Below, one piece after another: positions 29,390-55,233 of a DNA stretch of 64,000 bases (positions within the stretch are counted from its first letter, which is position 1; every line of letters starts with the position of its first letter). The translations under genes and the position numbers were made by a program. Below the pieces are notes generated by a model, which searched no databases, was not told where the DNA came from, and saw nothing but the letters and a program-made list of their open reading frames with translations. The DNA is from Sulfolobales archaeon HS-7. Lineage in GTDB: Archaea > Thermoproteota > Thermoprotei_A > Sulfolobales > Sulfolobaceae. Where the stretch lies: contig AP024596.1 in assembly GCA_019704295.1 (NCBI GenBank), positions 576,001 through 640,000 on the forward strand, written 5' to 3'.

Positions 29390-30778
29390 ATGTCGTTAGG
29401 ACTACTACTGTCTGGTATTATATTTATTCCGGCTATTGTTGTGATATTATTACAGATTGGTTTCTATATGTTAGGTCTAAAGAATACAATAAACGTTAAG
29501 CATGTAACAACCTTACCCTCTATCTCAGTGATAATGCCCATTAAGAATGAAGATGTAAATGTTATTCAAGGAGCACTTAATAATATAGCAGAACTGGATT
29601 ATCCAAAAGAGAAAGTTGAACTCGTGATCATATCCGATGATGATCAAGAACGTTTCAACTACATAATGAAGTCCTTAAACTTTCCTTTGGGTCTGGAAGT
29701 TAAGATTGTTAGGAGGGAGGAGAGGAAAGGATTCAAGAGTGGAGCTTTACAATACGGTCTCTACTTATCATCTGGTGAACTTATTCTCTCACTTGATGTA
29801 GACGGCAGACTTAAAAAGAACTCGTTGAGGCGAGCGGTATCAATAATGGAAGATCGAGGATGTGATGCAGTTGTCATGGATTGGAGAGGGTACTCCACAA
29901 ACAACAGTACGCTTTCTAAAGGATTGATAATTGGTACTACACTCGCCAGTGTTTCAGGAATTAAGGGAAGGGATAGGATTGGATTTCAGGTTTTCCCAGT
30001 CGGTTCAGGAACTTTATTCAAAAGGAGTGCTATTGTTGATGTAGGAGGTTGGAATCCATACATAGTTCAAGAGGATTTGGAGATAGGATGCAGAATGTTT
30101 TCTGGTGGGAAGAAGATATGTGGTTCGGACATACCGATAGAAGTTGAAGTACCATCAAGCTTTGAGGCATTCTATATACAACAAACTAGATGGGCCATGG
30201 GATGTATTGAGACAATAGCGCGAAGACTTAAAGATGTAGTGAATTCCAAGATTAGCATACTGAATAAGATAGATGCCATAATTTATCTATTACAATATCT
30301 ACCGGTTTCGTTAACTTTCGTTGGCACTTCCCTACTTGCTATGTTCACCTTATTAGGGTACGCAACATCCATCTCATTACCGTTATTCCTCGTTTGGATA
30401 GCGGTACTGGCGATATACGGTTATCTTTTCTTAAGAGTAGGAAAAAATATAGGCTTCCCCATTAAAGATATTTTATTCTCAATGGGAAGAGTGTCAGCCT
30501 TTACAGCGTCCCTATCTCCTTTTGTATTCTATTGGTCGCTAAAAGGTTTCTCCCGTAAAAGAGAATTTAGAATAACGCCTAAAGGAGGTTCGAGCGTTAA
30601 TTCAAAACTCAACGTTAAACTAATAATTGTAGGATTAGGTTTTCTATATATTTCAACCTCCGTAGTGGCAATAATTAGGGGGGAATTGCTGAGCGGATTG
30701 TGGCTATTTTACTATAGTTCAGCATACATTTACACTGGATTGGTCTCCCTATTAGAAAGTAAATTTAGTAAGAATTGA
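29390..30778 (+). CDS. Membrane glycosyltransferase family 2 (processive, cellulose-synthase-like)
   Basis: GFKSGAL, DVD, QED and QQTRW motifs; C-terminal TM helices. Confidence 0.9.
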   Translation: MSLGLLLSGIIFIPAIVVILLQIGFYMLGLKNTINVKHVTTLPSISVIMPIKNEDVNVIQGALNNIAELDYPKEKVELVIISDDDQERFNYIMKSLNFPLGLEVKIVRREERKGFKSGALQYGLYLSSGELILSLDVDGRLKKNSLRRAVSIMEDRGCDAVVMDWRGYSTNNSTLSKGLIIGTTLASVSGIKGRDRIGFQVFPVGSGTLFKRSAIVDVGGWNPYIVQEDLEIGCRMFSGGKKICGSDIPIEVEVPSSFEAFYIQQTRWAMGCIETIARRLKDVVNSKISILNKIDAIIYLLQYLPVSLTFVGTSLLAMFTLLGYATSISLPLFLVWIAVLAIYGYLFLRVGKNIGFPIKDILFSMGRVSAFTASLSPFVFYWSLKGFSRKREFRITPKGGSSVNSKLNVKLIIVGLGFLYISTSVVAIIRGELLSGLWLFYYSSAYIYTGLVSLLESKFSKN

Positions 30779-30779
30779 A

Positions 30780-30863
30780 CGCCGGGAGTGGGATTTGAAC
30801 CCACGCGGGGTTTCCCCCAACGGCTTAGCAGGCCGCCGCCCTACCAGGCTAGGCGATCCCGGC
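30780..30863 (-). tRNA. tRNA-Ser(GCT)
   Basis: Reverse complement GCCGGGATCGCCTAGCCTGGTAGGGCGGCGGCCTGCTAAGCCGT...GTGGGTTCAAATCCCACTCCCGGCG with a long variable arm. Confidence 0.95.
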
Positions 30864-31360
30864 TTACAAGAATGTATAGAAAGAAAATAATTAAAAACCT
30901 TTCACTCCGTTTTGAAAGAGTTAGGTTAAAATATTATAACCAGTTTGCGAAGAGAAACTAATACTACGTTTGAAGGAACTTCCAATCTATCAACATTTCC
31001 TGACCTTAAGTATAACGGAGTTAATACGTCTTAAGAGGTTGTATCTCTCATTTGGTGGGCATAGGTATAGCTGACGAGATACGTGAAATAAGGGTCTTTC
31101 GTTAACAACCTCTATTCGCCTAAGGGGGAAGTGTTAAATGACCCCTCCACAGTCCCATTAAGCCCTCACTAATGCTGAGGAATGGTTAGTAGCCCTAATG
31201 GATTTTTATAAATATGGTGGGTTATCTACCCTAACGGATCTACCACCCCATTAACCCATCTTTATAAGGTGATGAAGAGTATAAGGGTGAAAGGTCAACC
31301 TATACAATTATTTCCGTATTGTTACCTGGTGAAAAGTTGTCGAACTTCTTATAGAGATCA

Positions 31361-32008
31361 TCACCTAACCCCTAATATCTTGTGAAACTGGGGCAGAACT
31401 CTAAAGTTATATCCTAACTTGGTAACCCATTCAGAGAGTTCTAATAACGCGTTAATATAGTCGCTACGGTTACCGTCAGGTTGAACTATTACCTTTTGTT
31501 CGCTAATTCCCTGGAATTGCACGAACTCCTTTATCTCCTTTAAATCGAATTCCGGATTTACAACAACGAACTTATAATAGGTGGCCCAATCGTCGTTTCT
31601 AAAGTCATATTTAGGTTTAAATCCACTATTACTCAGCTTAGGCGATACTGAGAAGAAATCAACGTACTTTCTAAGTTCCTCTCGGGGTTTTATAGTGCCA
31701 CTAGTTTCTAGTGCTACGATATATCCAGCTTGTTTTAGTTTAACAACGAGTTCGACAATATCTTGAAGTAGGGGTTCACCCCCAGTTATCGTCGTTAATT
31801 TAACTTCTGGAGAAATTTGACTTAGGATTTCTTCACTATTCATTTTCTTCCCATCCCGCATGTACCAAGAATACTTAGTATCGCACCAAACACATCTTAG
31901 ATTACAGCCCGCAAGCCTAACAAAATTTGACGGTCTTCCTATGAGAAGACCCTCTCCCTGTATAGACGTAAATATCTCTATAATATAGTAGTACCTTCTT
32001 TCGCCCAA
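31361..32008 (-). CDS. queE: 7-carboxy-7-deazaguanine synthase
   Basis: EIFTSIQGEG, FVRLAGCNLRCVWCDT, TGGEP, ETSG, SPK, PQFH. Confidence 0.92.
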   Translation of the reverse strand: MGERRYYYIIEIFTSIQGEGLLIGRPSNFVRLAGCNLRCVWCDTKYSWYMRDGKKMNSEEILSQISPEVKLTTITGGEPLLQDIVELVVKLKQAGYIVALETSGTIKPREELRKYVDFFSVSPKLSNSGFKPKYDFRNDDWATYYKFVVVNPEFDLKEIKEFVQFQGISEQKVIVQPDGNRSDYINALLELSEWVTKLGYNFRVLPQFHKILGVR

Positions 32009-32028
32009 TTTTCCTTACACTGGCCTCA

Positions 32029-32592
32029 TTAAATTGTAGCAACTAGATGTTCAGCGCCCTCTTCCTTCAGTAGATTTCTCAGCGCACCCTCTCCCCTTAT
32101 CCTCTTTTGTAGCATTAATAATCCTCTAGCTAAGGCTTCGGGTCGAGTTGGGCATCCCGGCATGTAAATGTCCACTGGTAATCCTATTTCGCTAGGTAAA
32201 ACTAAATTGTAACTATTCCAGAAAATCCCTCCTTCTAGGGAACATGCGCCCATAGCTATAACGTATTTGGGCTCAGGCATTTGTTCCCATACAATCCTAA
32301 CGGCTCTAGCCATTTTCCTAGTCATAGTTCCCTCAATCACAAGTAGGTTAGATTGTCTGGCAGATGAAAAAGGAAGCATTCCAAATCTCTCAGAGTCGAA
32401 CCGAGAAGCTGCAAAAGATCCAAATTCGGTTCCGCAGCAGCTAGTTGTCATGTGCGGGGGCCAAAGTGAGAACGACACCCCCCAGTCAATTAAGCTTCTT
32501 ATAGGTTTCTTATTCAATAACCACCGTGCAGCTTTCCTAGCCGCGGTATTTGCGTCCCCTTGAAGTAATATTTCCTGTGTCAAAGAAATCAC
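32029..32592 (-). CDS. nuoB: NADH-quinone oxidoreductase subunit B-like Fe-S protein
   Basis: TSCCGTE, QMPEPKYVIAMGAC, PGCPTRPEA. Confidence 0.92.
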   Translation of the reverse strand: MISLTQEILLQGDANTAARKAARWLLNKKPIRSLIDWGVSFSLWPPHMTTSCCGTEFGSFAASRFDSERFGMLPFSSARQSNLLVIEGTMTRKMARAVRIVWEQMPEPKYVIAMGACSLEGGIFWNSYNLVLPSEIGLPVDIYMPGCPTRPEALARGLLMLQKRIRGEGALRNLLKEEGAEHLVATI

Positions 32593-32669
32593 ACCTTCAT
32601 TATATATTAGACAGCTAGCTAAATAAATATTAGCTACAAGCTTTTGAAAGGTAGATATTAAACATTCGA

Positions 32670-32870
32670 TTTATCTTCACTGAGGATTAAAGGGAAGCCA
32701 TCTGGGAGGATGGGTGTCCCCCTTTGTATAACTTTGACTATCGTTTTGCAGTAGTATATAAATGACGGTAGTCGATGAGATAAGTGTCGTCGCGACCCCT
32801 AAGAGAGGGTGGATGCGGTATGCCTCTGATCCAATCGGCGGTCCCCACAATACCATTATGTTAACTCGAC
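32670..32870 (+). mobile_element. IS200/IS605-type MITE, truncated before the right end
   Basis: tttatcttca left end, cccctttgta, gatgcggtatgcctctgatccaatc..atgttaactcga core shared with 6598-6900 and 42079-42397. Confidence 0.72.
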
Positions 32871-33406
32871 ACAGTATTAAATGCACGATTAATGTTAATA
32901 ACTAAATAAACTAAAAAGTTATAGAATACGACTCTCTAGAATTAAATTCGCTTAATTATAATATAGAAGATAATATAAAATAAGTTTATTAGGAGTAGTT
33001 ACAAGTAATCATATGTTTCTCAAAAATCAAGGCCAAAAAGAGGTTTTCGACTTGATTAGTTCAAAGTTTACAGAGGGAACAATAGGATATTTTTAAGCTT
33101 AGGAAATTAACAAATGAGTTTAATCTCCCGTAATTCACCTATATAATCGCCATAATTATCCGATATATGCCTGGTTATTCCAATATCCTAAAATCTAGTT
33201 TTTAAAGTAAATTACATTTGTTATATTCGACATCATTTCATGTTATCCGATTTTTCGACCTTTTTCCCTTTATAATTTACGCAATAGGTGAATCATTTTT
33301 TCATTATCTTGAGATACCTTCAACGAGAAATTCCTAACCGCCTTGAATCTAAAGCTAGGAAAGGGGGACTTTCACCCTATCCTTGTCAAATTAAATTCAA
33401 AAATTC

Positions 33407-33607
33407 CTATATCCACCACCCTGTGACAGACCAACAGCCATATCTTTCATTAAGTTTGACACATTGTGAACTATCCTTATTACATTCCTCACATAGCTTC
33501 TGATACTCCTTGACTGTTTCATTATCACATATTATTTGATTACAAATTCTCACACACTTTCTTCCAGCAATGTATATGTAGCATTCCATATACCTTTTTT
33601 CCCTCAA
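33407..33607 (-). CDS. Small Cys-rich hypothetical protein
   Basis: Eight Cys in ~60 aa, ending GCWSVTGWWI. Confidence 0.6.
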   Translation of the reverse strand: MREKRYMECYIYIAGRKCVRICNQIICDNETVKEYQKLCEECNKDSSQCVKLNERYGCWSVTGWWI

Positions 33608-33699
33608 TGATCATTTAAAGCGTTTCTCATAACGGGCAAGCTATGAGATTCCAATTCGTGACCTTAACTATATTGTAAATTTTTTATATGTAATACGTT

Positions 33700-34569
33700 T
33701 TAGAAAAGACGCGATATCATAATAAGGATAAATATTAGAGCTAGATATGGAGAGGATAGTTTGAATGATTCCCACGCTTCCTCTTTAGTCGGATTAATAA
33801 GAAGCTTTACGGAGGAATATATAATTAGCATAGAAAGTATTACGCATCCATACAAGTAGATTATATTTGTGTAAAAATAAAGAGAAAATGCTAAAGGTAG
33901 CATGAGGAAATTGGAAATTGCTATAGCTAGAGCTGAATTCCTCTCAGTAGTAAGCGATGGAAGCATTGGATAGTTGGCGTTAATATAATCCTCTCTCATT
34001 CTTAATGCCAATGACCAGAAATGTCCGGGAGTCCACATGAATATAAGAAGTCCTAGTAAAAACGCTTGAACGGAAAAACTACCTGTTATTGCAGAGAATC
34101 CCGCCCATGCCGCAGCGCTCCCAGCAAATCCCCCTATCACTATATTCCACCAGGTTCTCGGTTTAAGATACATGGTATATAGAAAAACATATATCAGAAC
34201 TCCTAGAGCTATAAAAAGTGCGGTAAGTGGATTTATAAGTAAACCTAAAATAACTCCAACTACTGATTGAATAGCCCCGATTAATATTGAGACATTTGGT
34301 GTAACACTGCCGACAACAGTAGGTCTTTTGGAAGTTCTTTTCATGACCCTGTCCCTATCAACCTCTAGTCCTTCATTAATCATTCCTGCGCCGCCTGACG
34401 CAAGACTCCCTGCTATTAGTAAAAGTACCATAATGATAAGTTGCTTAAGACTAAATGGTAATCTAATCCCAAGGAAAGCACCTGCTAGTGCAGCCAAGTC
34501 AAGCAACACTAATATTCGCGGTTTATTCAGCGTTAAGTAGTCCTTCAATGATATAGTGAGCGTATTCAT
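33700..34569 (-). CDS. ctaB: Protoheme IX farnesyltransferase (heme o synthase)
   Basis: KPRI, DRDRVMKRTSKRP, LKPRT, WTPGHFWSLA, DY..ANYPMLP. Confidence 0.93.
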   Translation of the reverse strand: MNTLTISLKDYLTLNKPRILVLLDLAALAGAFLGIRLPFSLKQLIIMVLLLIAGSLASGGAGMINEGLEVDRDRVMKRTSKRPTVVGSVTPNVSILIGAIQSVVGVILGLLINPLTALFIALGVLIYVFLYTMYLKPRTWWNIVIGGFAGSAAAWAGFSAITGSFSVQAFLLGLLIFMWTPGHFWSLALRMREDYINANYPMLPSLTTERNSALAIAISNFLMLPLAFSLYFYTNIIYLYGCVILSMLIIYSSVKLLINPTKEEAWESFKLSSPYLALIFILIMISRLF

Positions 34570-34909
34570 ATCGATTTAAATACCTCTACATCAGCGAAAT
34601 TATAAACATTGGTATGAATTTTATTTAACTGTGTTACAAACTAAAGTTAATTCGGAAAAAACCCGCTCGATCTAAGGTAGTTTAGTTAAGCGGTTTCCAA
34701 CCGTGAATTGCTTACGAACCTTAACGTAAAAACTCGATCTGCCAGGAGGACGTATAACAAGGTAAGTTATGAAAACATAAGAGAGCCCTTGTACTCAATT
34801 AAAGAACTCTCCTCTTTTAATTCGTGCTTACGCGTTAACTAAGGCCCTCACATAAATATCATACCATAAATTATAATTACCTCTAATGTAAGGTTACCCA
34901 TGGTGTTTA

Positions 34910-35038
34910 ATGTTGGAGGAAGAGGATTGGGAAGAAGAGGACTTTGAGGAAGAGGATTGGGAAGAAGAGGACTTTGAGGAAGAGGATTGGGAAGAAGAGG
35001 ACTTTGAGGAAGAGGATTGGGAAGAAAACGAATGGTAA
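34910..35038 (+). CDS. Unannotated 42-aa hyper-acidic microprotein ML(EEEDWEEEDF)3EEEDWEENEW
   Basis: ATG 34910 to TAA 35038; GGTG RBS-like at 34902-34905; TTATAA at 34871; below the ORF-track size cutoff. Confidence 0.7.
   Translation: MLEEEDWEEEDFEEEDWEEEDFEEEDWEEEDFEEEDWEENEW
34916..35026. repeat. Perfect 30-bp tandem repeat (~3.7 copies)
   Basis: gaggaagaggattgggaagaagaggacttt repeated with no spacers. Confidence 0.97.
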
Positions 35039-35310
35039 TAATGCCTCATCATACTAAGAAGACATTATCTATTTTTGGAGTAGTTTTACTAGTAAAGTGA
35101 GCTATTCTCATCCTGAATGGTTAGATCAAAAGTAGCTTATCTGAGTTTGAATTATTATAGTAAAATAATCTTGGAATTGATGTAAATAGTGTTCTAGTTA
35201 TTAGAATAAGCTTGTTGGAGTTAAGGGTCTTCAATTGCTTTCCGATAAATATTGTATAGTCTTCTAAAAATCAGACAGTGCAGCTTATTACCTAACGTTT
35301 CTAGCAAGAT

Positions 35311-35610
35311 ATAAATTCACCCCATCTTGGCAAAAGGAGGCTTCCTGTTTCACTGCTCCGCCTTGCGTGTAGTAAAGGGCGGAACTTCACAGGCCGTGAG
35401 GGTCGCCCCAGAAGTGAGCTTAACGTTAGTGTTTCACGCGGAACTGTAGCTGGAGTGTAGGCGTACCACATTTACCCTCACTTAGGTGTCTTGGTAACAT
35501 TCACCTAGCCGAATGCTATCACTGATGTACTGGCCGCGAATTGACTTAAACAGAAGAAGCTATCCATCCCCTCGCATATTCCGCCCTTTTGAACCTCTGA
35601 TAAAGATAAG
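35311..35610 (-). mobile_element. IS200/IS605-type MITE (~300 bp)
   Basis: ggcttcctgtttc..ccgccttgc..acaggccgtgagggtcgc right end, shared core, tatccatccc..ccgccctttt gaacc left end. Confidence 0.82.
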
Positions 35611-35719
35611 AAAACTTTATCGATTCTCTACTTAATATTAGATGCAAATATACCTGGTGGTTAATTAATGCCTTACTTTAGAAATAATAGTTTGTCCTTT
35701 AAATTCGGGAGGAATTGAC

Positions 35720-37522
35720 ATGAGATTAGCTGTAGTTAATTTAGATCTGTGTAAGCCTACTAAGTGTAATTACGAGTGTATAAACTTCTGTCCAGTTAAT
35801 AGGTCAGGCACTACTGCAATTGAAGCGCTAAATGAACTCAAGGGAAAACCAAGGATCTATGAGGAGACCTGTATAGGATGCGGTATTTGTGTAAAGAAAT
35901 GTCCCTTTGAGGTTATTTCAATAATAAACCTTCCTGATCAGTACGAGGGAGAAGTAGTCCACCGATATGGTGCAAATGGGTTTAAGCTCTTCGGTCTTCC
36001 GACACCAAAGACTGGAAAAGTTATAGGGATTTTGGGACGAAATGGTTCCGGTAAAACGACAATACTTAAAATACTCAGTGGAGAGATCATGCCTAATTTT
36101 GGCATAGTAGACCAGAATCCGACAATAGACTCTGTCCTAGATAACTTTCGCGGGAAAGAGATCTACGACTACTTCAGGAAGTTATACAATAGAGAATTAA
36201 AGGTAGTTCATAAAATACAGTATGTCGATCTCGTCGGGAAAAGATTATCAGGAAATGTAGCGTCTCTGTTAACCAAAGTGAACGAAAGCGGTAAGTTAGA
36301 TGAGATAAGAGAATTATTGAACATGAATTCCTTTTGGAATAAGGAAGTGAAGACACTAAGTGGGGGAGAGCTTCAGAAACTTCTGATAGCTGCTACTCTA
36401 GCGAGAGAGGCCGACGTATACGTACTCGATGAGCCGTCGTCTTACTTAGATGTAAGGGAGAGACTGAACATGGCTAGAGCAATTTTAACTCTTACGAAGA
36501 ACAAATTCGTTTTATTAGTAGAACATGACCTAGTAGTGTTAGATTACCTATCGGATCTAGTTCACATAGTCTATGGAGAACCGGCTGTTTACGGTAAGGT
36601 ATCCAAGCCATACTCCTCAAGAGTAGGAATAAATTACCTAATAGAGGGATATCTCCCCGCGGAGAACGTAAAGTTTAGGGACGATAAAATAATCTTCGAA
36701 TTAAAAGAGCTTAATGAAGAAAATAAAAAGGGGAAAGAAAAGAGGGTAGAGTGGTCGTCATTAAATGTAATTCTCTCTGGATTTCAACTTAGGGTGGAGG
36801 AAGGATATGCCTTTAGTGGGGAGATTATCGGCATCTTGGGACCTAACGGAATTGGAAAAACGACATTTATGCGTGTTCTAGTCGGAGAAGTAATGCCTTC
36901 CTCGGGATATGTTATAGTGTCAAACCTCACTATGGCGTACAAACCCCAAAAGATAACACCAGAATTTCCAGGGACAGTTAGAGAACTATTAATCGCATCA
37001 AGTGAAGACGCGTTATCCAACTCCTCTTGGTTTTACGTGGAAGTAATAAGGAAATTCGGACTCCACAAACTACTTGACTCTGAAATATCAACACTAAGTG
37101 GGGGAGAGCTTCAGAAACTTCTGATAGCTGCTACTCTAGCGAGAGAGGCCGACGTATACGTACTCGATGAGCCGTCGTCTTACTTAGATGTAGAAGATAG
37201 ATATACAATGGCTAAGGCAGTAAAAAGAGTTACCTTAGAAAGGGGGGCAGTAACCTTCATAGTTGAACACGATATCTCAATTCATGATTACATTGCGGAT
37301 AGGTTAATGGTTTTTACTGGACAACCAGGAATCAATGGTCGTGCGTCATCGCCCCTATCGAGGAAAGTCGGAATGAATAGCTTTCTCAAAGAGATGGATA
37401 TAACCTTTAGAAGAGATCCCGATACTGGTAGACCCAGAGTTAACAAACCAGATAGCTATCTAGATCGGGAGCAAAAGAGAAAGGGAGAGTATTACTTCGT
37501 GGAAAGTAAAGTTCTAGAATGA
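35720..37522 (+). CDS. rli: Ribosome recycling factor ABCE1/Rli1
   Basis: N-terminal 2x[4Fe-4S] Cys motifs, two NBDs (GRNGSGKT, GPNGIGKT), hinge TFRRDPDTGRPRVNK. Confidence 0.96.
   Translation: MRLAVVNLDLCKPTKCNYECINFCPVNRSGTTAIEALNELKGKPRIYEETCIGCGICVKKCPFEVISIINLPDQYEGEVVHRYGANGFKLFGLPTPKTGKVIGILGRNGSGKTTILKILSGEIMPNFGIVDQNPTIDSVLDNFRGKEIYDYFRKLYNRELKVVHKIQYVDLVGKRLSGNVASLLTKVNESGKLDEIRELLNMNSFWNKEVKTLSGGELQKLLIAATLAREADVYVLDEPSSYLDVRERLNMARAILTLTKNKFVLLVEHDLVVLDYLSDLVHIVYGEPAVYGKVSKPYSSRVGINYLIEGYLPAENVKFRDDKIIFELKELNEENKKGKEKRVEWSSLNVILSGFQLRVEEGYAFSGEIIGILGPNGIGKTTFMRVLVGEVMPSSGYVIVSNLTMAYKPQKITPEFPGTVRELLIASSEDALSNSSWFYVEVIRKFGLHKLLDSEISTLSGGELQKLLIAATLAREADVYVLDEPSSYLDVEDRYTMAKAVKRVTLERGAVTFIVEHDISIHDYIADRLMVFTGQPGINGRASSPLSRKVGMNSFLKEMDITFRRDPDTGRPRVNKPDSYLDREQKRKGEYYFVESKVLE
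36353..37192 (+). repeat. 102-bp identical direct repeat inside ABCE1 (36353-36454 = 37091-37192)
   Basis: Both copies encode TLSGGELQKLLIAATLAREADVYVLDEPSSYLDV with identical codons. Confidence 0.95.
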
Positions 37523-38352
37523 TTTTTTATATTATTTATAACTTTGTCTAAATCAACGATCACTCCGGCTCTCCTCGTAGGTATAGACGATAGAACGTCG
37601 TCTGATCGTCCAATCAGGTCGTTAATTTTGCCTAATATTTTCCTGACTTCATTGGCATTTCCTACATCTCCTGAAGGCTTAACGTATTCGACCTTTCTGT
37701 CTGAAATCATGAATGATGGCCAACTTTTTGCAACTTTAGGAAGTACTACAATTCCGTTGTCTCTAAGAAATGCAGGTACTTTAGCCCTAATCCATCCTCT
37801 CAGGGAAAATAAAACTAAAACGTCCCATTGCTCTTTAACTTCTCGGATCTGTCTAATTTCCTTAGGCAATTGAAATGAGGAATCGTCTCTAAACACTGCC
37901 AGATCTCTGACTTTATCTTGTAAATATAACGCAGTTATCGCGGAAAAAAGTCCTGTACCTAATATGAGTACGCTTTTTCCTTCTCCAATTTCTGCTACCT
38001 GTTTTGCAATAGATATGTGTGGAAGAAAGAGGTTATCCTCGTCATTGTTACCGACTACACGTATAACATCTAAAGGAATAGAAGAATATTCGCTCATTAC
38101 ACCATTAGCATCTATTCCTATTCCTCCATAACGCTCAGAATAGGGAAAGATAACTACCTTTTTCCCTATTAATGATTGTTCTACCTGGACCCCAACGTCT
38201 TCGCATACTCCCATACCAATACTTCCTAATATCCTGGACGGCTCTACCCACAGAAATCCTAAGTATATAGCGTTCTCAATACCATCTAATAATACCTTTT
38301 GCGGTTTTACTAATACGTGATCTTTTTCAATAAGCGGATTAGGCAAGTCCAT
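37492..38352 (-). CDS. Degenerate MDR/Zn-alcohol-dehydrogenase-like protein
   Basis: GroES-like N-terminus (VLVK, ILGSIGMG, GKKVV) and a GxG remnant; lacks the Cys/GHE zinc ligands. Confidence 0.7.
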   Translation of the reverse strand: MDLPNPLIEKDHVLVKPQKVLLDGIENAIYLGFLWVEPSRILGSIGMGVCEDVGVQVEQSLIGKKVVIFPYSERYGGIGIDANGVMSEYSSIPLDVIRVVGNNDEDNLFLPHISIAKQVAEIGEGKSVLILGTGLFSAITALYLQDKVRDLAVFRDDSSFQLPKEIRQIREVKEQWDVLVLFSLRGWIRAKVPAFLRDNGIVVLPKVAKSWPSFMISDRKVEYVKPSGDVGNANEVRKILGKINDLIGRSDDVLSSIPTRRAGVIVDLDKVINNIKNHSRTLLSTK

Positions 38353-38447
38353 ATAAGTGATACCCTGGTTGAATACGACGCCTATTATACTGTATCACCG
38401 TAATTATTCATATAATAACATAACTGGTTATAAAGATAAGTGATTAA

Positions 38448-38807
38448 ATGAAAATCATTCATAACATAAGCAAAAGCGCCAGGAGTCAAATAATTTCACT
38501 TATGTTAAGGGAGAGGACGGAAAAGGAACTAGCGGAGGCATTGGATATAAGTCCGGCGTCTATCACCAAGTATATTAAGGAAGTTACGCATCCTAGCGAT
38601 AAAATAATAGAAAAGTGCTTAGAAATAGCTAATGACTATGAGGCCGAACAAATAGTTTCAATAATTCTTTCGGATGTGTTTGAGGCCCTTGTCGAATTCC
38701 TGAAAGTAGCCGGTGATAAAATACCTAATGAGGAAGTTAACATCTTAGTAAGTAAAATAAGAAATGCTAAGAGAGACTCAAGACTTCTCCTTAATCAGGT
38801 CTCCTAA
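38448..38807 (+). CDS. XRE-type HTH protein
   Basis: EKELAEALDISPASITKY..THPSD. Confidence 0.82.
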   Translation: MKIIHNISKSARSQIISLMLRERTEKELAEALDISPASITKYIKEVTHPSDKIIEKCLEIANDYEAEQIVSIILSDVFEALVEFLKVAGDKIPNEEVNILVSKIRNAKRDSRLLLNQVS

Positions 38808-39986
38808 TATTCTTATTCCCTCTTTTATCTCGTCGGGTGTGGGATAACTAAAGTTCAGCCTCATGGTATTCCTACCACTGTTATCGTAGAAGAAACCAGA
38901 ACCTGGTACATACGCTACTCCTCGTTCTAACGACTCAGCTAATAATTTTCCTGTATCAATTTTGTCACCTACTTTAGCAAATATGAACATACCTCCAACA
39001 GGACGACTCCACTCACAACCTTCAGGGAAGCTTTTTTCTAATTCGTCAAGCATTAGATCTCTCTTTTCTTTGTACATTTTTCTAATTCGTGGCAGATTCT
39101 TCTGTATTACTCCTCTCTTTATCGCTTCAAGTGCAATGTATTGTGTAAAAGTTGAGGAATGAAGGTCAACGCTTTGTTTCATCATTTCCATTTCCTTAAT
39201 AATATCTTCATCTGCAACAACCCATCCCAATCTTAATCCAGGAGACAGGATCTTGCTCATGGTTGACGTATATATTACTCTATTTTCCTCGTCTAGCGAT
39301 TTAATTGACGGAGGTGCCTCACCATCAAATACTACGTGTCCGTAAGCATCGTCCTCTATTATTAAGAAATTATATTTCGAGGCTAATTCAATTAAGTGTT
39401 TTCTCTTTTCCAAGCTCATCGTCACGCCGGCAGGGTTATGAGCCGTAGGTATTGTATAAAGGAATTTAACTCTCTTCCCTTCGTTATATAAGCGTTTTAA
39501 GTTCTCCTCGAGTTCCTCCATATTCATCCCGTCACTTTCTAATGTAATCCCGATAAAGGTAGGATAGTTCAGCCTGAATGAGTTAAGGGCAGCAAGATAC
39601 GTGGGATGTTCTATGATGAGAATGTCGCCAGGATCAAGTAGTAATTGACCTAAAATGTAAATCGATTCTTGGCTTCCGGTAGATACGAAAACGTTTTTAT
39701 AACTTATGCCACGTATTCCTCTTGATACCGAGAAATCGGCTATAGCTTTCCTAAATTCTGTAACACCTGCAGTTGTAGTATATTGGAGGGGTGCATAATC
39801 GTATTTATCTAGAATCTCCGAGGAAATCTGCTTTATATCTTCTGCCGGAAACGTATGTGGATCGGGTAGACCGCCAGCAAAGCTTATAACCTTCCTGCCC
39901 TCAGTAATTTTTAATATATCTCTAATCTCTGAGGCTCTGAGGTGTTTAGTTCTACTTGAGAAAACGTTTTGAAGAACGGTCTTCAT
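38778..39986 (-). CDS. PLP-dependent aminotransferase class I/II (LysN/ARO8-like)
   Basis: ISFAGGLPD, NPAG, IIEDDAY, SKILSPGLRLGW, RLNFS. Confidence 0.92.
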   Translation of the reverse strand: MKTVLQNVFSSRTKHLRASEIRDILKITEGRKVISFAGGLPDPHTFPAEDIKQISSEILDKYDYAPLQYTTTAGVTEFRKAIADFSVSRGIRGISYKNVFVSTGSQESIYILGQLLLDPGDILIIEHPTYLAALNSFRLNYPTFIGITLESDGMNMEELEENLKRLYNEGKRVKFLYTIPTAHNPAGVTMSLEKRKHLIELASKYNFLIIEDDAYGHVVFDGEAPPSIKSLDEENRVIYTSTMSKILSPGLRLGWVVADEDIIKEMEMMKQSVDLHSSTFTQYIALEAIKRGVIQKNLPRIRKMYKEKRDLMLDELEKSFPEGCEWSRPVGGMFIFAKVGDKIDTGKLLAESLERGVAYVPGSGFFYDNSGRNTMRLNFSYPTPDEIKEGIRILGDLIKEKS

Positions 39987-39995
39987 AAATAATAT

Positions 39996-40820
39996 TTGGT
40001 GATCGTCGTTAATAAATTCACGATCGACTGGGTGGAAATAATAACAGTAGGAAATGAGGTTGTTTCTGGAAGGACTGTAAATTCTAATGCTACAAATATA
40101 GCTAGGCGAATGCAGAGCCTAGGGTTTACAATTAATCGAGTAACTTCGGTCAGAGATGAAGAGGACGAAATAGTCGATGTTATTACATCTGCCTTAAGGA
40201 GAAAAAATAAAGTGATTATAATAACAGGAGGTTTAGGTCCCACTTACGACGATATAACGTCTCAATCTTTAGCAAAAGCTCTGAACAGAAAGCTTGAACA
40301 GAACGTAAAGGCCCTAGAACAAATAAAGGAGAAGTATAGGAAAAGGAATCTTGAGTTAACGCCAGAGAGAATTAAAATGGCATTTATCCCAGAAGGAGCT
40401 CAACCTGTAGATAATAATAAGGGAATTGCCCCAGGTATATATGTTAATGTAGAGGGGGTCGAAATATTAGCTACCCCTGGTGTTCCTAGCGAGATGGAAG
40501 ACGTTTTAGAGAACTTTATTAGGAGTTTCCTTAAATATCGCCCAGCTTTCAAATATTACGAGGCTAATTTGGAAGTACAGGGAGTAATGGAATCTGCAAT
40601 AGCCCCCCATATTGCTGAATTAGTCAAAAAGTACTTCCCTATATATATTAAAACTCACCCCCAAGGAAAGGAATTGGAAAAACCAGTGTTAAGGATCCAA
40701 ATAGCATTGAGTTCTGATAACGAGATGGAGGCCAAAAAGAAAATAGAGGACAGCAAAAGAGAGTTACTTAACGTCATTCACGCATTACACGGCACTGTGA
40801 CTGATCAGGGAACGTCATAG
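39996..40820 (+). CDS. CinA N-terminal (molybdopterin-binding-like) domain protein
   Basis: ITVGNEVVSG..NSN, TGGLGPTYDDIT, APG, PGVPSEM. Confidence 0.88.
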   Translation: MVIVVNKFTIDWVEIITVGNEVVSGRTVNSNATNIARRMQSLGFTINRVTSVRDEEDEIVDVITSALRRKNKVIIITGGLGPTYDDITSQSLAKALNRKLEQNVKALEQIKEKYRKRNLELTPERIKMAFIPEGAQPVDNNKGIAPGIYVNVEGVEILATPGVPSEMEDVLENFIRSFLKYRPAFKYYEANLEVQGVMESAIAPHIAELVKKYFPIYIKTHPQGKELEKPVLRIQIALSSDNEMEAKKKIEDSKRELLNVIHALHGTVTDQGTS

Positions 40821-54864: not shown

Positions 54865-54923
54865 ATGCTGATGAACTGGCTTACAGATGGTTCTCATTAT
54901 TTTATAGCTTCGTCTTACTAGCT

Positions 54924-55233
54924 ATGAACTCACCCCCTTTTGTAAAAGGGGCTTCCTGCTTCACAGCTGCACCTTGCCAGTACTAAAGAACTGAGCTCCT
55001 CAGACTCTGAGGACCGCACCTCGAAGTTAACGTTAGTGTTTAACATGGCACCGCTGATTGGAGGAGAGGTGTGTCACATCGACCCTTTCTCAGGAGGTTA
55101 AGTGACGCTTACTCTGTCGATGATTGTCGTTGATATATTAGGCTGCGAACCGATACTCCAAACTAAATCAAAGAGGGCTATCCATCCTCGCGGATGAGGG
55201 TCTTCCACCCCTCTAATCCCCGATGAAGATAAA
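54924..55233 (-). mobile_element. IS200/IS605-type MITE (310 bp, well preserved)
   Basis: atgaactcaccccc..ggggcttcctgcttc..accttgccagtac right end close to that of the tnpB remnant at 12329; left-end hairpin gagggctatccatcc..cccctc. Confidence 0.85.

Follow-up and report, generated by a model that had tools for sequence, protein, structure and literature searches.

The window, meaning the whole stretch of 64,000 nucleotides of Sulfolobales archaeon HS-7 DNA that was analysed, contains a short and very acidic ORF in the intergenic region between a gene of the UbiA prenyltransferase family and the gene for ABCE1 (RLI). The features of this region, with positions counted along the window, are the following.

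33700–34569, minus strand: flanking gene, UbiA-family prenyltransferase.
34868–34880, plus strand: BRE/TATA-like element aaATTATAATTAc, with TTATAA at 34871–34876, about 34–39 nt before the start codon of the micro-gene; putative promoter.
34902–34905, plus strand: GGTG Shine-Dalgarno (SD) element, 4 nt before the ATG.
34910–35038, plus strand: micro-gene of 42 codons plus TAA (ATG at 34910, TAA at 35036–35038), encoding a hyper-acidic peptide in which Trp/Phe recurs periodically and Trp is the C-terminal residue; conserved as a family and under purifying selection.
34916–35026, plus strand: perfect 30-bp tandem repeat of 3.7 copies within the ORF (Tandem Repeats Finder, 100% matches).
35039–35719, plus strand: enlarged spacer of 681 bp between the micro-gene and ABCE1, most Sulfolobaceae relatives having 38–54 nt here.
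35072–35076, plus strand: T5 run that follows the stop codon at a distance of 34 nt and may serve as an oligo-T terminator of the archaeal kind or as an attenuator.
35307–35613, no strand assigned: dispersed repeat of about 180–300 bp, with 12 further copies elsewhere in this genome at 67–77% identity.
35720–37522, plus strand: ABCE1, 600 aa, the next gene on the strand, with GGGAGG 8–13 nt before its ATG.

The predicted product of the micro-gene is a peptide of 42 aa with 31 Asp/Glu residues and no Lys, Arg or His. Its net charge is approximately −31, and aromatic residues are spaced along the polyanion, with Trp or Phe at positions 7, 12, 17, 22, 27, 32, 37 and 42, the final residue being Trp. 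An earlier sequence-only reading of the window had drawn attention to this 129-nt ORF and to its composition, including the aromatic residue at each fifth position and the terminal Trp; the composition was recomputed and found to be exact, and the perfect 30-bp repeat claimed in the same reading was recovered by Tandem Repeats Finder. The two 15-bp halves of each 30-bp unit differ from one another at synonymous sites and in coding for Trp versus Phe. With its 42 aa, the peptide is the longest member seen of the family described below, whose other members in related genomes measure 23–37 aa, because the 30-bp repeat has expanded in frame. This expansion is recent, since the repeat copies are still perfect.

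The distance to ABCE1 is likewise unusual for Sulfolobaceae, 681 nt instead of the usual 38–54 nt, because DNA has been inserted into the spacer. The dispersed repeat found there is probably the relic of a mobile element; an Rfam scan over 30000–40000 returned a tRNA-Ser only and no match for the repeat, and the predicted fold of the repeat was not unusual (z = −0.19). Despite the 681 bp that now separate it from ABCE1, the micro-gene has kept its promoter block, its SD element and its reading frame intact. ABCE1 itself, which the sequence-only reading had correctly named as the next gene on the same strand, is preceded in the window by an AT-rich stretch in addition to its own GGGAGG.

When the 1.15-kb intergenic region was searched against 40 related genomes, the acidic ORF was the only part of it that matched widely. 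At every matching locus the acidic frame was open and short, began as M/V/L-(F)-EE[D/E]W and ended as …EE[E/D]W-stop, while the DNA repeat itself was not conserved. ABCE1 was then located in all 40 related genomes of the order and the region upstream of it was read, which revealed a same-strand ORF of the same design, 23–42 aa in length, at 29 of the 40 loci. The gap between the micro-gene and ABCE1 was 38–54 nt in most Sulfolobaceae and 76–273 nt in the order's remaining families. Among the 29 positive loci is that of S. acidocaldarius DSM 639 (NC_007181.1), in which the micro-ORF lies at approximately 534,837–534,926 on the minus strand, 49 nt upstream of rli/Saci_0672; ABCE1 was located at 532,973–534,784, matching the 532,970–534,784 given for this gene in the gene table of PMC8578740. 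That table passes from rli (Saci_0672) to Saci_0675 with nothing for the micro-ORF, and the supplement of PMC10663502 has no entry near 534.8 kb.

To follow the family further, the DNA pattern for W-E-E-[D/E]-E-W-TAA was searched in 185,579 prokaryotic species, each represented by a single genome, yielding at least 120 matches. Among the matches listed, 117 were archaeal by record title and 3 bacterial, and most came from Bathyarchaeia, with others from Sulfolobales/Desulfurococcales, Ignisphaera, Hyperthermus, Pyrobaculum and a few DPANN. Family-like ORFs made up 116 of the matches listed; for 13 of these the fetched block ended too close by for a judgement, and among the remaining 103 loci with enough flanking sequence, 90 had ABCE1 downstream on the same strand within 2 kb (median gap 144 nt, range 41 to 1786 nt), the other 13 being truly unlinked. 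The shorter pattern E-[D/E]-E-W-stop was present in 199 of 301 genomes sampled from the phylum and, within this sample, was nearly missing from two families, f19 (2/43) and f9 (0/6).

These micro-genes thus form a conserved archaeal family that is almost never annotated and that ancestrally and predominantly sits just ahead of ABCE1 on the same strand. Their products are 20–42 aa long, consist almost entirely of Glu and Asp, carry three to eight spaced Trp/Phe residues and nearly always end in Trp. The window ORF has the length (20–45 codons), the Asp/Glu content (at least 70%) and the lack of basic residues of the family, together with the M-(hydrophobic)-acidic-W start, the acidic-acidic-W/F-stop end and ABCE1 next downstream on the same strand, at a gap of 681 nt. 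It had been described as isolated, which does not hold in evolutionary terms, as it represents at this locus an ABCE1-tied family that is widespread. Among the larger ORFs of the window, ABCE1 is the only one to recur beside the micro-gene in relatives. The ctaB part of the ctaB/rli neighbourhood suggested from the sequence is not conserved.

The expression signals are shared along with the peptide design. Sulfolobaceae relatives carry a near-identical block, gaaaattataagtac, 31–45 nt before the start codon, almost every member of the family has GGTG or GGAGGTGA 5–10 nt ahead of its start codon, and a T-rich tract follows the stop codon of the micro-gene in relatives. The TATA element, the GGTG-type SD and the T-tract, all three of which had been proposed for the window ORF and were located there, accordingly recur at the same places in related genomes. 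A generic sigma-70/terminator scan of the window is uninformative for an archaeon and was given no weight.

Alignment of the window ORF with 23 relatives showed that E4, E5 and W7 are invariant and that W17 and W37 are conserved in at least 90% of the sequences, with Trp, Phe, Leu and Ile exchanging for one another at the aromatic positions of the relatives. In a set of 19 Bathyarchaeia species, the choice of which carries a selection bias, the 20-aa core was identical and all 8 variable nucleotide columns were third codon positions, the core being 97% identical, while identity falls to 63% over the 36 nt on its upstream side and to 41% over the 60 nt on its downstream side. A comparison of congeneric pairs, which is free of that bias, pointed the same way: eight pairs of equal length from the order differed by 42 synonymous and 11 non-synonymous codon changes, the latter largely Glu/Asp exchanges. 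One congeneric pair showed 8 synonymous changes and no non-synonymous one, even though the first 300 nt of ABCE1 were only 76% identical between the two genomes. Four further pairs of unequal length differed by 3, 3, 6 and 12 nt, all multiples of 3.

These results bear on a rival explanation, according to which the locus would be a GA-rich minisatellite evolving neutrally, or else an element that works only as RNA, with an incidental open frame. The perfect tandem repeat of this genome fits such an origin, and changes between GAR and GAY codons would also keep a purine-rich RNA pattern. The DNA repeat, however, is not what is conserved; it is the peptide design, the start, the SD spacing and the Trp-stop end that are kept across at least two archaeal classes, and the indels between congeneric pairs are always in frame. 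Moreover, the exchanges of Glu for Asp and among Trp, Phe and Leu are conservative for a protein and not for an RNA, which argues against an RNA-level element. Frame-breaking lengths or a missing ORF at orthologous loci had been set in advance as the mark of neutrality, and the opposite was found, with frame, start and stop conserved in all loci examined. A neutral minisatellite is contradicted by these data, and the explanation as a whole is considered highly improbable. The protein-level selection first suspected from the repeat is instead upheld by the synonymous excess in the congeneric pairs and by the third-position-only variation in the Bathyarchaeia core. Judged from its sequence, the ORF is a real gene under selection at the amino-acid level, equipped as a complete expression unit with its own predicted promoter, a short leader that holds the ribosome-binding site, and a T-tract.

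The arrangement of the signals around ABCE1 differs between the two main groups. The Sulfolobaceae spacer is rich in T, and a GGTG usually precedes ABCE1 as well; given the short spacer and this GGTG, co-transcription of the micro-gene and ABCE1 appears plausible. The Bathyarchaeia layout begins with a palindrome of the type CGTCAnnTGACG, followed by a TATA box (…AAATGTTTAAAC) approximately 55–65 nt before the ATG of the micro-gene, GGAGGTGA at −15 to −8, the micro-ORF (20–24 codons in most members) and a conserved TTTCTTTT 25–30 nt after its stop codon. A second and strongly conserved TTTATA box is located approximately 40 nt before the ATG of ABCE1. As this separate ABCE1 box comes after the T-tract, the micro-gene and ABCE1 of Bathyarchaeia give the impression of being transcribed separately although they stand in tandem. 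Across five genomes of Bathyarchaeia, the promoter palindrome occurred in exact form only in front of micro-genes, and a regulon search in the same genomes showed that sites with one mismatch were no commoner than the control.

The usual place of the micro-gene raises the question of whether it serves as a cis-acting leader ORF, in which the acidic N-terminal peptide would destabilise or stall the ribosome, or leave unrecycled ribosomes at the stop codon; this reading is possible but rather unlikely. Equally tentative is its extension, that recycling capacity or ribosome stability would in this manner feed back on ABCE1 synthesis, the peptide itself having no job. In most genomes ABCE1 is the gene that directly follows the micro-gene on its strand, the Sulfolobaceae spacer of 38–54 nt and the GGTG before ABCE1 fit a bicistronic mRNA, and the T-tract right after the ORF could act as an attenuator. 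There are also precedents in acidic, translation-aborting sORFs such as mgtQ (PMC8092293), in ribosome destabilisation by N-terminal D/E runs (PMC9718836, PMC12673854) and in the uORF control of human ABCE1 (PMC8389594). In Bathyarchaeia, however, the TATA box of ABCE1 lies downstream of the T-tract of the micro-gene, so that the micro-ORF should be absent from most of the ABCE1 mRNA of this group; the common transcript with the regulated gene that IRD-type control involves is hence plausible in Sulfolobaceae and contradicted in Bathyarchaeia. The wide range of gaps to ABCE1 among the matches listed, from 41 to 1786 nt, also speaks against a leader, as does the window ORF, which is intact in spite of the 681 bp, including a repeat element, in front of ABCE1. 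Finally, acidic runs suffice for ribosome destabilisation, which leaves the conserved Trp positions and the terminal Trp unexplained.

The copies that are not linked to ABCE1 are a further point against control in cis. Eight genomes of the order without such an ORF before ABCE1 have an intact copy elsewhere, next to genes for an NfeD protease, a metallo-beta-lactamase-fold protein, an Na/H exchanger, a DUF234 ATPase or an RPB9-like zinc ribbon, and in several cases the downstream gene is convergent. In two species of one genus, the unlinked micro-gene sits at non-orthologous places. Several Bathyarchaeia have a second, unlinked paralogue, which in the two genomes examined is preceded by the same palindrome and promoter, and other genome records hold two family-like matches each among the pattern matches listed. 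No neighbour was common to the unlinked copies, either in the genomes of the order or among the Bathyarchaeia paralogues. An IRD-type ORF would be expected only in front of the gene it regulates, whereas these unlinked copies and paralogues stand beside unrelated or convergent neighbours. Their intactness is the main reason why a product that acts freely is preferred over a purely cis-acting leader.

A free product could also act without any specific tie to ABCE1, as a polyanionic decoy or nucleic-acid mimic that would titrate chromatin proteins, SSB, nucleases or free ribosomal proteins, as the sequence-only reading had imagined. The net charge and the aromatics spaced along the polyanion, as well as the existence of unlinked copies, are compatible with such a role. 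It would nevertheless leave unexplained why ABCE1 lies downstream at 90 of the 103 assessable loci among the matches listed, and no basic protein or lysine-rich micro-ORF common to the unlinked copies examined was found beside them at the thresholds used. The single strong signal from the context points to ABCE1 and translation and not to nucleic-acid mimicry, which is regarded as unlikely.

The family has left few traces in the databases. With the reservation that blank protein searches are partly due to the short length of the peptides and to composition filters and are not proof of absence, Pfam (E up to 1) and NCBIfam scans of the window peptide returned 0 families, a search for homologous proteins of 23–74 aa gave no candidate, a profile search with the family alignment against 1.84 billion representative proteins gave 0 matches, a PDB sequence search likewise gave 0 matches, and none of 10 family members, looked up by exact sequence, was on record in a collection of 15 billion proteins. 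The ESM Atlas contains the 42-aa sequence itself, its neighbours there all being below 0.8 and uninformative. The literature search found no paper describing the family, nor any small dedicated partner or regulator of ABCE1.

The conservation of the micro-gene, its selection at the amino-acid level and its positional tie to ABCE1 are observed, and the product is probably a small helper of protein synthesis. The explanation that accounts best for the data, held with moderate confidence, is that of a conserved ABCE1-linked micro-gene whose acidic-aromatic peptide would act in trans at ABCE1 or at the ABCE1-bound small subunit. The peptide would be made and act as a disordered polyanion with aromatic anchor residues, docking at a site, basic or hydrophobic, that belongs either to ABCE1 or to the small ribosomal subunit carrying it, and might in this way tune ribosome recycling or the hand-over to initiation. 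In this genome, the 30-bp expansion has lengthened the peptide to 42 aa and the inserted DNA has moved the micro-gene 681 bp away from ABCE1.

The best candidate for a docking site may be the NBD1/HLH pocket of ABCE1. The hydrophobic NBD1 pocket of archaeal ABCE1 has been reported to bind the acidic-hydrophobic C-terminal tail of aP1, leading to ATPase activation (PMC6125642). In eukaryotic 43S complexes, the N-terminus of eIF3j occupies the same place, in the NBD1/NBD2 cleft of ABCE1 bound to the small subunit (PMC7780240), and the acidic motif of eIF3j, which has a conserved Trp at its centre, fits into a hydrophobic pocket (PMC2824034). Use of the same kind of ABCE1 site by the micro-peptide is best read as analogy and not as homology. 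A more specific form of this idea, and a doubtful one, is that the peptide is a free-standing archaeal cofactor of ABCE1 at the NBD1/HLH site that would time ATP hydrolysis, subunit splitting or 30S release.

Several points weigh against a free peptide acting on ABCE1. Conserved synteny can also arise from cis-regulation, and the short Sulfolobaceae spacer with the GGTG of ABCE1, described above, fits a bicistronic mRNA. The aP1 tail of this genome (…SEEEIAGGLASLFG) is only loosely similar to the micro-peptide, having no Trp and a mixed Lys/Glu linker. In addition, acidic runs right after the start codon are of the kind reported to abort translation (PMC9718836, PMC12673854).

The nature of ABCE1 suggests one more role, drawn by analogy and considered very unlikely, namely that of an Fe-S maturation tag in which the acidic-Trp C-terminus would help to load the two 4Fe-4S clusters of ABCE1. 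The C-terminal [D/E]-[W/F] is nearly invariant in the family and the neighbouring gene encodes an Fe-S protein, yet no counterpart of Cia1 or Met18, parts of the receptor in eukaryotes, is known in archaea, which counts against such a tag. The micro-peptide also has no deca-GX3 part with which to hold ABCE1. In eukaryotes, a C-terminal [LIM]-[DES]-[WF] signal has been described, and Lto1, the adaptor that brings Rli1/ABCE1 to the cluster-insertion machinery, has a C-terminal Trp (PMC4523923, PMC10245660). Position −3 of the micro-peptide, however, is Glu and not Leu, Ile or Met.

Essential and present throughout both archaea and eukaryotes, ABCE1 is in its archaeal form a main structural model of ribosome recycling. 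Should the peptide target ABCE1 or the ribosome, it would be an overlooked player in archaeal translation that has been kept from Sulfolobus to Bathyarchaeia, and if it is a cofactor at the NBD1/HLH site, it would represent an archaeal forerunner or analogue of acidic-aromatic motifs that are built into larger translation factors in eukaryotes. If the micro-gene is a leader ORF instead, it would be a rare archaeal case of control based on a nascent peptide, aimed at the ribosome-splitting factor. The family is invisible to gene callers, to profile searches and to tryptic proteomics, the last because the peptides contain no Lys or Arg. The window itself offers two natural experiments, the in-frame expansion to 42 aa and the separation from ABCE1 with the gene left intact, and since a member is found in the genetically tractable S. 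acidocaldarius, the question is directly testable.

Small acidic proteins with Trp residues are known from other systems. DSS1/Sem1 (PF05160) is small, very acidic and disordered and has conserved Trp residues; it differs from the micro-peptide in being eukaryotic, approximately 70–90 aa long and engaged with other partners, so that the likeness to it, as to further disordered acidic adaptors and to DNA mimics, is one of composition only, and the Pfam scan of the micro-peptide at E up to 1 returned 0 families. LysW/ArgW are small acidic carrier proteins of archaea and Thermus with a Trp near the acidic C-terminus. LysW, however, has a zinc-ribbon domain and a C-terminal Glu that carries the substrate, whereas the micro-peptide has no Cys or His, ends in Trp and has no NCBIfam or Pfam match.

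The P1/aP1 proteins are recognised by an N-terminal dimerisation domain and a conserved C-terminal …GLxxLFG end. The micro-peptide is not a member of this group (PF00428), as it has no Pfam match and the real aP1 of the genome is encoded elsewhere and has a different tail; that tail ends in …EEEIAGGLASLFG, has a Lys/Glu linker without Trp and shows no sequence relationship to the micro-peptide. What the two share is a disordered acidic stretch with hydrophobic or aromatic residues near the C-terminus and the same functional neighbourhood, ABCE1 (PMC6125642), although the aP1 tail is part of a ribosomal protein of 107 aa and not a free peptide.

Archaea, to our knowledge, have no eIF3. The N-terminal motif of eIF3j/Hcr1 is similar to the micro-peptide in being acidic and centred on Trp (PMC2824034), but it belongs to a eukaryotic protein of approximately 260 aa with a helical bundle, homology is undetectable, and the Trp pocket that has been described is on eIF3b and not on ABCE1. 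In gene arrangement, the micro-gene resembles MgtL, mgtQ and the uORFs of human ABCE1, which are very short, rich in Asp/Glu after the start codon and located upstream of the gene they control (PMC8092293, PMC8389594). These leaders are bacterial or human, act in cis only and are conserved merely in a few acidic or Pro codons, in contrast to the micro-gene, of which the peptide pattern, including the positions of Trp, is conserved across classes and survives where the gene is unlinked from ABCE1.

A palindrome, aACG[A/T]CAnTTGACGAA, was found to be conserved 60-80 nt upstream of the ATG of the hyper-acidic micro-gene in the Bathyarchaeia loci (L084-L202), where it directly abuts the upstream side of the micro-gene TATA box. 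Several Bathyarchaeia carry two matches of the micro-gene design per genome record (L090/L131, L164/L205, L162/L103, L088/L140 and L171/L201). One of the two is usually linked to ABCE1 and has the typical core …EEGEDEEW…, and the other is unlinked, its typical core being either …EETEDEEW… or …DETEDEEW…. At L088 and L201, the sequence block was too short downstream for linkage to ABCE1 to be judged. The palindrome and promoter layout at L205 was the same as at the Bathyarchaeia micro-gene loci and, in five genomes, exact copies of the palindrome were restricted to micro-genes, the unlinked paralogues included. The palindrome is a candidate binding site for a dedicated transcription factor.

In L100, a short contig from a bacterial MAG whose record is titled Krumholzibacteriaceae bacterium, there is also a micro-gene, at which the TATA box and GGAGGTGA are arranged as in Bathyarchaeia; this contig is probably archaeal and mis-binned. 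Family-like acidic-Trp ORFs, ending in WEEEEW, were moreover found in two DPANN archaea, Nanobsidianus stetteri (L193) and Nanopusillus (L138), and no adjoining ABCE1 was present within the sequence blocks around each ORF. The hosts of these organisms are Sulfolobales, and the ORFs may have been acquired by gene transfer from the host lineage.

Within the order Sulfolobales, GCCGTCACCACTC was found again 0-40 nt upstream of the ABCE1 start codon in relatives from three different other families (L052, L055 and L060). Part of this motif, TCACC, is complementary to the ribosome-binding motif GGTGA, and from this complementarity GCCGTCACCACTC might mask a ribosome-binding site, or else act as a regulatory site.

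In the window, the spacer that separates the micro-gene from ABCE1 contains a repeat element:

35307-35613: dispersed repeat, approximately 180-300 bp

The repeat has a GC content of approximately 50% and contains a perfect 11-nt inverted repeat (35374-35384 / 35579-35589). Twelve further copies, 67-77% identical, occur in the same genome, one of them at approximately 54920-55094 of the window. A search of Rfam gave no match for the repeat and its folding revealed nothing unusual; it is probably the relic of a mobile element. Separately, a 62-bp segment that precedes the micro-gene (34705-34766) has a single other copy in the genome, 82% identical, at 1908388-1908448.

Translation of ABCE1 itself showed that the same protein segment occurs twice, once in each nucleotide-binding domain:

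36353-36454 (+): signature / Walker B / D-loop segment of ABCE1
37091-37192 (+): signature / Walker B / D-loop segment of ABCE1

Since these segments are identical at the protein level, the translated sequence suggests that gene conversion has taken place between the halves of ABCE1.
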